A stretch of DNA of 64,000 nt, taken from assembly GCF_000026545.1 (NCBI RefSeq), contig NC_011601.1; one strand, given 5' to 3'. The stretch is from Escherichia coli O127:H6 str. E2348/69 (GTDB lineage Bacteria > Pseudomonadota > Gammaproteobacteria > Enterobacterales > Enterobacteriaceae). Every line of letters begins with the position of its first letter. Position 1 is the first letter of the stretch. A program made the translations under genes and the position numbers. Of this stretch, positions 53,949 through 60,083 are shown in pieces. Below the pieces are notes generated by a model. It worked only from the letters and a program-made list of their open reading frames with translations, did no database searches and was not told the origin of the DNA.

Positions 53949-54925
53949 AACCAGTCCACTTCATCCTTATGCTCTTCGAAATCGGCGCGCATCTCCTCAA
54001 TCAGCTCCACCATATCTTGTGGAATAGGCGCATGCCATTCCATTTCGATGCCGGAGATCGGATGATAAAGACGCAGCATGGTTGCATGAAGCGCCTGACG
54101 GTCAAACTTACGTAGCGTGGAGATAAACGCTTCCGAAGCACCTTTTGGCGGACGCGGACGTCCACCATAAACCGGATCGCCCACCAGCGGATGAGTGATA
54201 TGGGCCATATGCACGCGGATCTGGTGCGTACGTCCAGTTTCCAGACGCAACCGCAGACGCGTGTGCACACGGAAGTGTTCCATGATGCGATAGTGAGTGA
54301 CCGCCGGTTTACCCATCGGATGCACCGCCATGTGAGTACGTTTGGTCGGGTGGCGGCTGATTGGTTCATCTACTGTACCGCCAGCGGTCATATGACCAAT
54401 TGCCACCGCTTCATACTCACGTGTAATTTCACGCCGTTGCAAAGATTCGACTAAACGCGTCTGAGCCGGAACGGTTTTTGCCACAACCATCAGGCCGGTG
54501 GTGTCTTTATCCAGACGATGGACGATGCCCGCACGCGGTACATCGGCAATGGGCGGATAGTAATGAAGCAACGCATTCAGTACCGTACCATCCGGGTTAC
54601 CCGCGCCAGGATGTACCACCAGGTCGCGTGGTTTATTAATGACGATGATATCTTCATCTTCATAGACGATATCCAGCGGGATATCCTGCGGTTCAAAACG
54701 CGCTTCTTCTTCAATCTCAGCGTTGATGGCCACCTGCTCGCCACCCAATACTTTTTCTTTCGGCTTATCACAAACTTTGCCGTTAACCAGCACGCGCTGG
54801 TCGAGGATCCATTCTTTTATTCGCGAACGTGAATAATCCGGGAACATTTCGGCCAAAGCCTGATCTAAGCGTTGACCGAGTTGGTTTTCGGACACCGTTG
54901 CAGTGAGCTGTACTCGTTGTGCCAT
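53945..54925 (-). CDS. rluD: 23S rRNA pseudouridine(1911/1915/1917) synthase (326 aa)
   Basis: ORF track 53945..54925; S4 domain and RluA-family catalytic motif HRLDKDTTG. Confidence 0.96.
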   Translation of the reverse strand: MAQRVQLTATVSENQLGQRLDQALAEMFPDYSRSRIKEWILDQRVLVNGKVCDKPKEKVLGGEQVAINAEIEEEARFEPQDIPLDIVYEDEDIIVINKPRDLVVHPGAGNPDGTVLNALLHYYPPIADVPRAGIVHRLDKDTTGLMVVAKTVPAQTRLVESLQRREITREYEAVAIGHMTAGGTVDEPISRHPTKRTHMAVHPMGKPAVTHYRIMEHFRVHTRLRLRLETGRTHQIRVHMAHITHPLVGDPVYGGRPRPPKGASEAFISTLRKFDRQALHATMLRLYHPISGIEMEWHAPIPQDMVELIEEMRADFEEHKDEVDWL

Positions 54926-55059
54926 ATATACTGCTTCTTCGTTTATCGTTGGGGTTTTACGGCTTTGCCGTTTAATATAGTGTGCTATTGTAGCTGGTCT
55001 TAACCGGGAGCAGGAACAGAGAATCTCCCGTATTACATTTTGAGGAAAGTCAAAACGTC

Positions 55060-55797
55060 ATGACGCGCATGAAATATCTGGTGGCAGCCGCCACACTAAG
55101 CCTGTTTTTGGCGGGTTGCTCGGGGTCAAAGGAAGAAGTACCTGATAATCCGCCAAATGAAATTTACGCGACTGCACAACAAAAGCTGCAGGACGGTAAC
55201 TGGAGACAGGCAATAACGCAACTGGAAGCGTTAGATAATCGCTATCCGTTTGGTCCGTATTCGCAGCAGGTGCAGCTGGATCTCATCTACGCCTACTATA
55301 AAAACGCCGATTTGCCGTTAGCACAGGCTGCCATCGATCGTTTTATTCGCCTTAACCCGACCCATCCGAATATCGATTATGTCATGTACATGCGTGGCCT
55401 GACCAATATGGCGCTGGATGACAGTGCGCTGCAAGGGTTCTTTGGCGTTGACCGTAGCGATCGCGATCCTCAACATGCACGAGCTGCGTTTAGTGACTTT
55501 TCCAAACTGGTGCGCGGCTATCCGAACAGTCAGTACACCACCGATGCCACCAAACGTCTGGTATTCCTGAAAGATCGTCTGGCGAAATATGAATACTCCG
55601 TGGCCGAGTATTATACAGAACGTGGTGCATGGGTTGCTGTCGTTAACCGCGTAGAAGGCATGTTGCGCGACTATCCGGATACCCAGGCTACGCGTGATGC
55701 GCTGCCGCTGATGGAAAATGCATACCGTCAGATGCAGATGAATGCGCAAGCTGAAAAAGTAGCGAAAATCATCGCCGCAAACAGCAGCAATACATAA
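55060..55797 (+). CDS. bamD: Outer-membrane protein assembly factor BamD (245 aa)
   Basis: ORF track 55060..55797; lipobox LFLAGCSG and TPR repeats. Confidence 0.96.
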
Positions 55798-55820
55798 CAG
55801 AAACCTGAAACACAAAACGG

Positions 55821-55833
55821 CAGCCTTGAGCTG
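55821..55833. repeat. Left 13 bp target-site duplication of the IS4 insertion (cagccttgagctg)
   Basis: Identical 13-mer at 56923-56935 immediately flanks the other IS4 end. Confidence 0.85.
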
Positions 55834-56922
55834 TAATGCCAGTCAGTTAAGGATCAGTTGACCGATCCAGTGGCTGTGTAAGAATCCGGAAACGCTCACT
55901 CGTTTCCGGATTTTTTTATGCTCATTGGGCAGGCACTTGATTTGGTATCCCGTTACGATTCTCTGCGTAACCCACTGACTTCTCTGGGGGATTACCTCGA
56001 CCCCGAACTCATCTCTCGTTGCCTTGCCGAATCAGGTACTGTAACGCTACGCAAGCGCCGTCTTCCCCTCGAAATGATGGTCTGGTGTATTGTTGGCATG
56101 GCGCTTGGGCGTAAAGAACCTCTTCACCAGATTGTGAATCGCCTGGACATCATGCTGCCGGGCAATCGCCCCTTCGTTGCCCCCAGTGCCGTTATTCAGG
56201 CCCGCCAGCGTCTGGGAAGTGAGGCTGTCCGCCGCGTGTTCACGAAAACAGCGCAGCTCTGGCATAACGCCACGCCGCATCCGCACTGGTGCGGCCTGAC
56301 CCTGCTGGCCATTGATGGTGTGTTCTGGCGCACACCGGATACACCAGAGAACGATGCAGCCTTCCCCCGCCAGACACATGCCGGGAACCCGGCGCTCTAT
56401 CCGCAGGTCAAAATGGTCTGCCAGATGGAACTGACTAGCCATCTGCTGACGTCGATGACGGACGCCATGCGCTTCCCCGGAGGAGAAATGGCGGATCTGT
56501 ACAGTCATCGCTGGGAAATCGAACTGGGATACAGGGAGATAAAACAGACGATGCAACTGAGCAGGCTGACGCTGAGAAGTAAAAGCCGGAGCTTGTGGAG
56601 CAAGAGCTGTGGGGTGTCTTACTGGCTTATAAACTGGTGAGATATCAGATGATTAAAATGGCGGAACATCTGAAAGGTTACTGGCCGAATCAACGGAGTT
56701 TCTCAGAATCATGCGGAATGGTGATGAGAATGCTGATGACATTGCAGGGCGCTGCACCGGGACGTATACCGGAGCTGATGCACGATCTTGCAAGTATGGG
56801 ACAACCAGTGAAATTACCGACAAGAAGGGAAAGGGCCTTCCCGAGAGTGGTAAAGGAGAGGCCCTGGAAATAACCCACAGCCCCGAAAAAGAGCCAGTCA
56901 GTTGCTTAACTGATCGGCATTA
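55834..56922 (+). mobile_element. IS4 derivative, 1089 bp, with 18 bp imperfect terminal inverted repeats (taatgccagtcagttaag / taatgccgatcagttaag) and an internal deletion
   Basis: Termini, 16/18 IR identity and 13 bp flanking direct repeat read directly. I recall canonical IS4 as 1426 bp, so this copy lacks about 337 bp. Confidence 0.85.
55918..56873 (+). pseudogene. IS4 transposase pseudogene: about 336 bp in-frame internal deletion (junction near 56441-56452) plus -1 frameshift in the A4 run at 56581-56584
   Basis: ORF track 55918..56640 (MLIGQALDLVSRYDSLRNPLTSLGDYLDPELISRCLAESG...QMELTSHLLT|SMTDAMRFPGGEM...) and 56595..56873 (MEQELWGVLLAYKLVRYQMIKMAEHLKGYWPNQ...) are the N- and C-terminal parts of an IS4-family DDE transposase in different frames; the central segment I recall from IS4 Tnp is absent. 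Confidence 0.8.
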
Positions 56923-56935
56923 CAGCCTTGAGCTG
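56923..56935. repeat. Right 13 bp target-site duplication of the IS4 insertion (cagccttgagctg), followed by the T-run of the split bamD terminator
   Basis: Identical to 55821-55833. Confidence 0.85.
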
Positions 56936-57113
56936 CCGTTTTTTATTCTGTTAGTTGTGAAACTGAAGCGATTTAGTCACTATCGATCTCATCAAATATG
57001 GCTCGCTTTGAGATATTCCTCAAGTAAAAAAACTCATCTTCCTGCGATTTCTCACAAAAAAGATTCGTTGACAAAAAGTGACAAAATTATGAGATTTCCA
57101 TCACACATTTTGA

Positions 57114-57509
<396 letters not shown>

Positions 57510-57533
57510 TCCTTTATATTGAGTGTATCGCCA

Positions 57534-57556
57534 ACGCGCCTTCGGGCGCGTTTTTT
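57534..57556 (+). terminator. Intrinsic terminator after raiA (cgcgcc-ttcg-ggcgcg then T6)
   Basis: GC hairpin with tetraloop and T-run. Confidence 0.85.
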
Positions 57557-57612
57557 GTTGACAGCGTGAAAACAGTACGGGTACTGTACTAAAGTCACTT
57601 AAGGAAACAAAC

Positions 57613-57660
57613 ATGAAACACACACCGTTTTTCTTCGCATTCTTTTTTACCTTCCCCTGA
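57613..57660 (+). CDS. pheL: pheA leader peptide (15 aa, Phe-rich): MKHTPFFFAFFFTFP
   Basis: Small ORF with seven Phe codons directly upstream of pheA; classic attenuation leader. Confidence 0.92.
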   Translation: MKHTPFFFAFFFTFP

Positions 57661-57706
57661 ATGGGAGGCGTTTCGTCGTGTGAAACAGAATGCGAAGACG
57701 AACAAT

Positions 57707-57736
57707 AAGGCCTCCCAAATCGGGGGGCCTTTTTTA
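57707..57736 (+). terminator. pheA attenuator terminator (aaggcctccc-aaatc-ggggggcctt then T6)
   Basis: Hairpin plus T-run between pheL and pheA. Confidence 0.9.
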
Positions 57737-57758
57737 TTGATAACAAAAAGGCAACACT

Positions 57759-58919
57759 ATGACATCGGAAAACCCGTTACTGGCGCTGCGAGAGAAAATC
57801 AGCGCGCTGGATGAAAAATTATTAGCATTACTGGCAGAGCGACGCGAACTGGCCGTCGAGGTGGGAAAAGCCAAACTGCTCTCGCATCGCCCGGTACGTG
57901 ATATTGATCGTGAACGCGATTTGCTGGAAAGATTAATTACGCTCGGTAAAGCGCACCATCTGGACGCCCATTACATTACTCGCCTGTTCCAGCTCATCAT
58001 TGAAGATTCCGTATTAACTCAGCAGGCTTTGCTCCAGCAACATCTCAATAAAATTAATCCGCACTCAGCACGCATCGCTTTTCTCGGGCCCAAAGGTTCT
58101 TATTCCCATCTTGCGGCGCGCCAGTATGCTGCTCGTCACTTTGAGCAATTCATTGAAAGTGGCTGCGCCAAATTTGCCGATATTTTTAATCAGGTGGAAA
58201 CCGGCCAGGCCGACTATGCCGTCGTACCGATTGAAAATACCAGCTCCGGTGCCATAAACGACGTTTACGATCTGCTGCAACATACCAGTTTGTCGATTGT
58301 TGGCGAGATGACGTTAACTATCGATCATTGTTTGTTGGTCTCCGGCACTACTGATTTATCCGCCATCAATACGGTCTACAGCCATCCGCAGCCATTCCAG
58401 CAATGCAGCAAATTCCTTAATCGTTATCCGCACTGGAAGATTGAATATACCGAAAGTACGTCTGCGGCAATGGAAAAGGTTGCACAGGCAAAATCACCGC
58501 ATGTTGCTGCGTTGGGAAGCGAAGCTGGCGGCACTTTGTACGGTTTGCAGGTAATGGAGCGTATTGAAGCGAATCAGCGACAAAACTTCACCCGATTTGT
58601 GGTGTTGGCACGTAAAGCCATTAACGTTTCTGACCAGGTTCCGGCTAAAACGACGTTGTTAATGGCGACCGGACAACAAGCTGGTGCACTGGTTGAAGCG
58701 TTGCTGGTACTGCGCAACCACAGTCTGATTATGACCCGTCTGGAATCACGTCCGATTCACGGTAATCCGTGGGAAGAGATGTTTTATCTGGATATTCAGG
58801 CCAATCTTGAATCAGCGGAAATGCAAAAAGCATTGAAAGAGTTAGGGGAAATCACCCGTTCGATGAAGGTATTGGGCTGTTACCCAAGTGAGAACGTAGT
58901 GCCTGTTGATCCAACCTGA
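57759..58919 (+). CDS. pheA: Bifunctional chorismate mutase / prephenate dehydratase (386 aa)
   Basis: ORF track 57759..58919; [39 protein letters not shown]. Confidence 0.97.
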
Positions 58920-58926
58920 TGAAAAA

Positions 58927-58954
58927 GTGCCGGATGATGTGAATCATCCGGCAC
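58927..58954. terminator. Bidirectional hairpin between convergent pheA and tyrA (gccggatgat-gtgaat-catccggc)
   Basis: 10 bp perfect stem seen directly. Confidence 0.7.
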
Positions 58955-58961
58955 TGGATTA

Positions 58962-60083
58962 TTACTGGCGATTGTCATTCGCCTGACGCAATAACACGCG
59001 GCTTTCACTCTGAAAACGCTGTGCGTAATCACCGAACCAGTGCTCCACCTTGCGGAAACTGTCAATAAACGCCTGCTTATCGCCCTGCTCCAGCAACTCA
59101 ATCGCCTCGCCGAAACGCTTATAGTAACGTTTGATTAACGCCAGATTACGCTCTGACGACATAATAATGTCGGCATAAAGCTGCGGATCCTGAGCAAACA
59201 GTCGCCCGACCATCGCCAGCTCAAGGCGGTAAATCGGCGAAGAGAGCGCCAGTAGTTGCTCAAGCTGAACATTTTCTTCTGCCAGGTGCAGCCCATAAGC
59301 AAAAGTAGCAAAGTGGCGCAAAGCCTGAATAAACGCCATATTCTGATCGTGCTCGACAGCGCTAATACGATGCAACCGAGCGCCCCAGACCTGAATTTGC
59401 TCCAGAAACCATTGGTATGCTTCCGGCTTACGTCCATCACACCAGACCACAACTTGCTTTGCCAGGCTACCGCTGTCCGGGCCGAACATCGGGTGTAACC
59501 CCAGCACCGGGCCATCGTGCGCCGCCAGCATGGCCTGTAATGGCCCATTTTTCACCGATGCCAGATCAACCAGAATACAATCTTTCGGTAAAGGCGGTAA
59601 TTTGCCGATAACTTGCTCAGTAACGTGGATGGGCACACTAACAATCACCATTCCGGCATCGGCAACAATATCAGCCGCTCGATCCCAGTCATGTTGCTCC
59701 AGAATCCGCACCTGATAACCCGAGAGTGTCAGCATCTTCTCGAACAGACGCCCCATCTGACCGCCACCACCGACGATAACCACCGGGCGCAGTGACGGAC
59801 AAAGCGTTTTAAATCCTTTGTCGTTTTCACTGGAGTAAGATTCACGCATCACCCGACGCAAAACATCCTCAATCAGATCTGGCGGTACACCCAGAGCTTC
59901 CGCCTCTGCACGACGCGAGGCCAACATAGATGCCTCGCGCTCCGGAACATAAATAGGCAGTCCAAAGCGGCTTTTCACCTCGCCCACTTCAGCAACCAGT
60001 TCCAGACGCTTCGCTAATAAATTCAGCAGCGCTTTATCGACTTCATCAATTTGATCGCGTAATGCGGTCAATTCAGCAACCAT
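58962..60083 (-). CDS. tyrA: Bifunctional chorismate mutase / prephenate dehydrogenase (373 aa)
   Basis: ORF track 58962..60083; [37 protein letters not shown]. Confidence 0.97.

Follow-up and report, generated by a model that had tools for sequence, protein, structure and literature searches.

The reference copy of IS4 in Escherichia coli K-12 (insG; IS4 family, IS4 subgroup) is annotated with a length of 1426 bp, and its intact transposase InsG has 442 aa, with the Pfam domains Nterm_IS4 at residues 18-109 and DDE_Tnp_1 at residues 126-352. The older literature gives AAA-N20-TTT as the target consensus of IS4, and work on its target specificity, on a hot spot in galT and on the pheST attenuator reportedly goes back to Klaer in 1981 and Mayaux in 1984. 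Fold-back control is known for IS10 and IS50, and the layout of candidate promoter and hairpin in IS4 resembles it. A further relative is the element annotated as ISZ/insZ in K-12, which is the relic lying between tdk and adhE and measures 1144-1145 bp in B2 strains including E2348/69. Among the rules that De Palmenaer (2008) gives for the IS4 family are D(60-110)D(100-150)E and Y(2)R(3)E(6)K.

Here, we analysed a window of 64,000 nucleotides from E. coli O127:H6 E2348/69 that carries a shortened IS4 copy between bamD and raiA (local gene order: yfiH-rluD on the minus strand, bamD, the IS4 pseudogene, raiA, pheL, pheA). The element is labelled "IS4 family transposase, frameshifted" in RefSeq, and its sequence is 100% identical in three E2348/69 (O127:H6, EPEC) assemblies. 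It is an ordinary, already annotated relic in a published genome, behaving as known for IS4, and by itself a dead insertion sequence of little consequence. We conclude with high confidence that IS4 entered the predicted terminator hairpin of bamD, decayed there and is now inherited and immobile. A literature search for IS4 in connection with bamD or raiA returned nothing relevant. The features of the locus, together with the related relics at tdk-adhE, are collected in Table 1.

Table 1. Features of the IS4 insertion downstream of bamD (window positions) and of the related tdk-adhE relics (positions in the loci named).
Feature	Position	Strand	Remarks
bamD CDS	55060..55797	+	245 aa, intact; from the ORF list; RefSeq WP_000197686.1 in E2348/69
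Left half of split predicted terminator	55814..55833	+	A-run, 5' arm acggcagc, loop cttga, gctg of 3' arm
Target duplication CAGCCTTGAGCTG	copy 1 55821-55833; copy 2 56923-56935		exact, 13 bp
IS4 relic	55834..56922	+	1089 bp; ~98% identity to K-12 IS4 over the kept parts; alignment and blastn
IS4 left inverted repeat TAATGCCAGTCAGTTAAG	55834..55851	+	from alignment to K-12 IS4; positions 8-9 AG, GA in K-12
Candidate transposase promoter	55858..55885	+	TTGACC-16-AAGAAT with TG; putative, by consensus match only
IS4-internal 15-bp hairpin and T-run	55880..55917	+	ends just before the transposase ATG; 47 bases into IS4
Truncated, frameshifted transposase frame	55918..56640	+	240 aa; keeps N-terminal IS4 domain, D133 and Y-R-E-K block, then out of frame
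Junction of 336-bp deletion	56438..56451	+	single remaining copy of the 14-bp direct repeat GCCATCTGCTGACG
A4 run, -1 frameshift	56581..56584	+	A5 in K-12 IS4 (nt 1084-1088)
TAA for TAC, InsG codon 431	56871..56873	+	nonsense; IS4 nt 1377 C>A, private to E2348/69
IS4 right inverted repeat CTTAACTGATCGGCATTA	56905..56922	+	tip dinucleotide TC, CT in K-12
Right half of split predicted terminator	56923..56944	+	duplication copy 2, then ccg, T6 run (56939-56944)
raiA CDS	57168..57509	+	232-bp spacer 3' of the insertion untouched; compared with K-12 spacer
tdk-adhE relic, E2348/69	L024 15300-16700		1144 bp, 281-bp deletion; annotated "frameshifted; internal stop"
Same relic, Nissle	L012 3001-4145		
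Same relic, RM14723	L013		
Same relic, K-12 (ISZ)	L014 1427-2406		

Insertion of IS4 into the predicted bamD terminator

A sequence-only reading of this stretch had described an element of 1089 bp, placed as in Table 1, with 18-bp imperfect inverted repeats and a flanking direct repeat, all of which agrees with the sequence, the 13-bp repeat being exact. The inverted repeats are complementary at 16 of 18 positions and begin with the IS4-type TAATGCC, and blastn against K-12 IS4 gave 98.1% identity over IS4 nt 1-618 and 97.5% over nt 941-1426. Near-identity to the reference, 18-bp terminal repeats and a 13-bp duplication are all present, and the element is a defective member of IS4, not autonomous.

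Joining the flanks of the element restores an 8-bp stem with a 5-nt loop followed by T6, the stem beginning 20 nt past the bamD stop codon, and this reconstructed empty site is found in strain SCU-115 with 100% identity over 198 of 200 nt; SCU-115 also carries the same BamD protein, WP_000197686.1. The site has two alleles, the 5-nt loop of the E2348/69 flanks and a 6-nt loop found in K-12, where the bamD-raiA spacer is uninterrupted (aaaacggcagcccttgagctgccgttttttt). The two alleles fold at -17.9 and -18.9 kcal/mol (z = -4.7 and -5.5; no shuffle equal), the 5-nt-loop site with z = -4.65 and 0 of 200 shuffles as good. A GC-rich 8-bp stem, a loop of 5 or 6 nt and T6-T7 just 3' of the stop codon have the anatomy of an intrinsic terminator, from which we infer that the empty-site hairpin is the terminator of bamD. 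The uninterrupted spacer that the earlier reading had suggested looking for was found in thousands of genomes, with the canonical hairpin and T-run after the bamD stop; the lack of any hairpin at the empty site, which it had named as evidence against itself, was looked at as well, and the hairpin at -17.9 kcal/mol is there. The 13-bp duplication covers the 5-nt loop and the four loop-proximal positions of either stem arm, so that the insertion is centred on the loop and not confined to it. The claim of an insertion in the loop of a terminator hairpin is thus right as to the hairpin, which is restored with its T6 and exact in SCU-115, and too narrow as to the loop.

The target at bamD reads aaaacgg[13]ccgtttttt, with the A-run upstream, the T-run downstream and the GC-rich centre of IS4 target arms. 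It can be written as AAA-N19/20-TTT with a palindromic centre, compared with AAA-N20-TTT at the K-12 IS4 site, acAAAcac[cagaaccaagat]gcctaTTTcg. The IS4 site of strain S21 is aaaaacgg[gaccctttggc]cccgttc and that of the adhE relic aaacgg[ccccttctgggg]ccgtttt. Scanning species-representative genomes gave 17 more IS4 left flanks, of which Kosakonia oryziphila REICA_142 supplied 16. Among 21 left flanks, A occupies positions -18, -17 and -16 in 18, 17 and 15 sites and G position -1 in 17, and in 16 of the 21 an AAA ends at -19 to -14. Judged from these flanks, the bamD site fits the target preference of IS4.

In the K. oryziphila REICA_142 draft, at least 16 contigs carry IS4 left ends, many of them breaking at or near these ends, with tips identical to those of K-12 IS4, which points to an expansion of IS4 outside Escherichia. 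One Kosakonia site (L041) resembles the bamD hairpin and was rejected as a counterpart, no BamD being found upstream of it by tblastn. Photorhabdus khanii NC19 also carries an IS4 copy (L026-L042 for the two genomes together). A contig of Methylobacterium mesophilicum (NZ_BPQU01000128.1, 265 bp; L025) has the left flank of the K-12 IS4 site, identical over the 45 nt compared, and is probably an E. coli K-12 contamination of the assembly.

Internal deletion and loss of the transposase

Alignment to the 1426-bp K-12 IS4 gave one 336-bp gap, one 1-bp gap and 23 substitutions, which reproduces exactly the earlier division of the 337 missing bp into a 336-bp in-frame deletion and one base of an A-run. 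The endpoints of the deletion, for which an alignment to the ISfinder IS4 had been proposed as a check, fall in this alignment in 14-bp direct repeats located in K-12 IS4 at nt 605-618 and 941-954 and encoding (S/C)HLLT. The junction had been put between short direct repeats at HLLT codons 56441-56452; the repeats are real, 14 bp long, and the HLLT codons lie one base earlier, at 56440-56451. A naturally short IS4-family element of ~1.09 kb was rejected, since the alignment shows a clean internal deletion against the 1426-bp IS4.

A sequence search with InsG against solved structures returned no match at E-values up to 10, so that the catalytic residues were located from the Pfam domain and the spacing of the motifs. 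The residues predicted in this way are D133, D209 (in LMDKGY) and E314, together with Y307, R310 and K321. The in-frame deletion removes 112 codons, InsG residues ~175-286, in the middle of DDE_Tnp_1; the predicted second Asp, D209, is gone, and the E2348/69 copy keeps D133 and Y307-R310-E314-K321. Even with a notional repair of the frameshift, the TAA at codon 431 would still stop translation, and no single intact DDE transposase gene is present. Because D209 is lost, the frame broken and a stop codon acquired, the copy cannot make transposase. The proposal that the deletion takes out the central catalytic region and leaves a non-autonomous copy is thereby borne out, with the frameshift and the stop as further lesions.

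Occupancy of the bamD site in E. coli

We searched 5,426 complete E. coli genomes with 200-nt junction queries covered over at least 80% of their length. The joined-flank query found the site empty in 5,007 of the 5,426. The left-junction query recovered IS4 at the identical position, in the E2348/69 orientation, in 336 genomes, and a query combining this flank with the other end of IS4 recovered it reversed in 70. Empty sites and both orientations together account for 5,413 of the 5,426 genomes. Besides E2348/69, 13 occupied loci from other strains were read, all with the identical insertion point. Full-length copies of 1426-1427 bp occur at bamD in MS20645, ZH063, 789, RM14723, APEC O2-211 and 2014C-3338, and full-length copies in the opposite orientation in IAI39 and EcPF7. 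The copies in 6-nt-loop alleles (789, RM14723, APEC O2-211 and 2014C-3338) have the 14-bp duplication CAGCCCTTGAGCTG on both sides, which matches that allele and hence indicates separate insertions into it.

The flanks of ZH063 and EcPF7 differ at 1 of ~3,100 positions, yet IS4 lies in opposite orientations in the two strains. An in-place inversion through the outer terminator arms was considered for the opposite-orientation copies and rejected, since the centre of their duplication, CTTGA, is unchanged. With both orientations present in near-identical flanks and inversion excluded, the bamD site was hit repeatedly. On these sequence comparisons, the predicted bamD terminator is a species-wide hot spot of IS4, of which the insertion in E2348/69 would be one instance. 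About 7.5% of complete E. coli genomes have IS4 in what we take as the terminator of the essential bamD gene, upstream of raiA, and this polymorphism is to be expected in 3' end studies, in work on raiA regulation and in typing schemes that include the locus. Moreover, the site offers a natural, well-replicated case of target choice by IS4, with both orientations and two site alleles.

Two of the compared genomes show peculiarities near the site. In isolate SC477 (L018 1826-2564), the essential bamD is annotated as frameshifted, which is better explained by a mistake in sequencing or assembly than by a genuine loss. In MFDS1022581 (L009 4149-5097), a DNA methyltransferase and a Com-family regulator stand 3' of raiA instead of pheL-pheA, and from these different genes the right flank is rearranged or has an insertion.

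Shortened forms and variant tips

The 1089-bp form is represented by 12 records, all at bamD. The four copies read (E2348/69, 382634_2f, Z1323HEC0423 and SC477) have in common the 336-bp deletion, the tip variants and the lost A (4 of 4), and the E2348/69 copy adds nine private substitutions. As they are common to the four strains, the deletion and the frameshift are older than the split of these strains. An 809/810-bp form, read at bamD in 2013C-4282, RMDEC465 and MFDS1022581, combines this 336-bp deletion with a second one of 281 bp (nt 980-1260), which lies between imperfect repeats GCGCTTC(C/A)CCGG. The relic at adhE-tdk has its 281-bp deletion at the same repeats, with the junction CCCC instead of CACC; the junctions being different, the 281-bp deletion arose at least twice, and the 336-bp deletion may, by analogy, be recurrent as well. 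Such repeated 336-bp and 281-bp deletions would mean that internal direct repeats drive a parallel decay of IS copies. Between MS20645 and 382634_2f, the IS copies differ at 14 positions and the flanks at 5 of ~3,100. The full-length copies at bamD belong to other IS4 sublineages, and thus no direct full-length progenitor was found among the copies read.

Four combinations of the tip dinucleotides (IS4 nt 8-9/1418-1419) were observed: GA/AG in K-12, AG/AG in the adhE relic, GA/GA in the RM14723-type copies at bamD and AG/GA in the E2348/69 copy. Of the two tip variants of E2348/69, the left one occurs in 964 records and the right one in 92, among them full-length IS4 at bamD. A swap of the tips as an event unique to the E2348/69 copy was therefore rejected in part, as to each variant by itself, both being present in other copies. 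In E2348/69, both duplication copies of the adhE relic read TTCT at their 4-nt centre; in Nissle and RM14723 the left copy has this centre flipped, to AGAA or ATAA, and in Nissle a perfect 36-nt inverted repeat results. Perhaps templated correction within a long quasi-palindrome, or else recombination between alleles, could lie behind both the tip states and the flipped adhE centre. The quasi-palindrome would comprise the arms of the terminator together with the duplication and both inverted repeats, with the tip dinucleotide and, at adhE in Nissle, the loop of one duplication copy as the flipped parts. A broader scheme can be drawn from this, in which the bamD terminator is a species-wide hot spot that received many independent hits in both orientations and two alleles, and in which IS4 copies in terminators decay in a stereotyped manner, by recurrent 336-bp and 281-bp deletions and by templated flipping in the quasi-palindrome. 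Taken as a whole, we put this scheme forward tentatively and consider it somewhat doubtful.

Transcription across the insertion

At the left junction no significant fold remains (-9.8 kcal/mol, z = +0.24), so that bamD would be left without a terminator of its own; at the right junction only a 4-bp stem, CAGC/GCTG, remains, plus the T-run. The hairpin inside IS4 folds at -24.4 kcal/mol with z = -5.83 and 0 of 200 shuffles as good, and it is likely to serve as a substitute terminator for read-through from bamD and as an insulator of the transposase gene. A substitute of this kind would explain why insertions beside an essential gene are frequently tolerated. The -10 hexamer of the candidate promoter overlaps the 5' arm of the same hairpin. 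Transcripts starting from it would be without this arm, and the layout would block external transcripts and not the element's own. Further downstream, the Phe leader upstream of pheA was recovered as expected (Rfam RF01859, 132 bits, 57612-57737), and a scan of 54000-59000 with Rfam gave nothing besides it.

History of the relic and alternative explanations

The history that we favour would have begun when IS4 transposed into an intrinsic terminator hairpin (AAAACGG-stem/loop-CCGTTTT) matching the arms that its transposase prefers. Cuts staggered by 13 bp and centred on the loop would have produced the 13-bp duplication. Slippage or recombination between the 14-bp direct repeats may then have lost 336 bp, that is 112 codons including the second catalytic Asp, after which the A-run would have lost one base and point mutations, among them the stop codon, would have built up. 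The relic would now be passed on like any other part of the chromosome in a small set of strains including EPEC E2348/69, with no self-mobility, and bamD transcripts probably stop ~90 nt further, at the IS4 hairpin and T-run before the transposase gene.

Two alternatives concern the way in which the element came to the site. The occupied bamD sites might all go back to a single old insertion that descent and homologous recombination then spread. All occupied loci examined have the same junction positions, and with relics ~2% diverged from modern IS4 at least some insertions are old; against this stand the existence of both orientations (336 and 70 genomes), the agreement of the 13-bp and the 14-bp duplication with the respective empty allele, the ZH063/EcPF7 pair with its near-identical flanks, and the presence of several IS4 sublineages at the site. 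We regard a single insertion as very improbable. It is also conceivable that the 1089-bp element arrived already deleted, being a non-autonomous, MITE-like element that an intact IS4 had mobilised in trans. Both of its inverted repeats are kept, and the 336-bp deletion recurs in the 809-bp form with different tips, so that a deleted element could have circulated. However, the 1089-bp form is known from one locus only, in 12 records, whereas a MITE-like element would be found at several loci; the 809-bp form examined is at bamD as well, and the 281-bp deletion recurred independently with different crossovers, for which recurrent slippage in place is sufficient. An arrival in the deleted state therefore appears unlikely, and decay after insertion at bamD remains our reading.

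A third alternative concerns the upkeep of the relic, whose truncated 240-aa product, with the N-terminal DNA-binding domain, might be selectively maintained, for instance to inhibit incoming IS4. The distinct changes at nt 85-604 in six relic copies comprise 9 synonymous and 6 non-synonymous ones, where 24.7% would be expected to be synonymous under uniform mutation (P = 0.004). Changes common to the relics may, however, be older than the inactivation, and those private to relic lineages are 5 synonymous and 5 non-synonymous, which is not significant (hand calculation). Moreover, non-conservative changes (E64G, G156E, P120L) are found in E2348/69 and other relic lineages, and the 240-aa frame ends in out-of-frame sequence. 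Selection on the truncated frame is not convincing, and we give it hardly any credence; the element is best taken as a decayed and inherited IS4 copy.

Comparison with known IS4 elements

The E2348/69 chromosome has two IS4-related places only, bamD and tdk-adhE. No intact IS4 was found in it, so that, as far as the chromosome is concerned, the bamD relic is stranded. A plasmid search showed IS4 to be common on plasmids of Shigella, Escherichia and Klebsiella. Near trpA, E2348/69 carries ISEc13, another member of the IS4 family, in two intact copies (L023 2325-3698 and 40771-42144), which flank a prophage with nleA, nleH1-2 and nleF that disrupted ompW.

With K-12 IS4, the E2348/69 copy has in common the 18-bp terminal repeats, the N-terminal domain, the first Asp and the Y-R-E-K block. 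It differs by the absence of nt 605-940 and of one A at nt 1084, by a stop codon among its substitutions and by tip dinucleotides that are exchanged between the two ends. Its 13-bp duplication, about one turn of the helix, falls within the 11-14 bp range of the IS4 sites examined, the others having 11, 12 and 14 bp. Other IS4 alleles at the bamD site have the identical insertion point, but belong to other sublineages and show other tip states. ISZ, too, is a pseudogene of IS4 that lies in a terminator hairpin (AAACGG-CCCCTTCTGGGG-CCGTTTT); its target duplication measures 12 bp, short direct repeats bound its internal deletion, and it has several substitutions and the AG left tip in common with the bamD copy. 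Unlike the latter, it occupies another locus, lacks 281 bp (IS4 nt about 980-1260) and has perfect inverted repeats.
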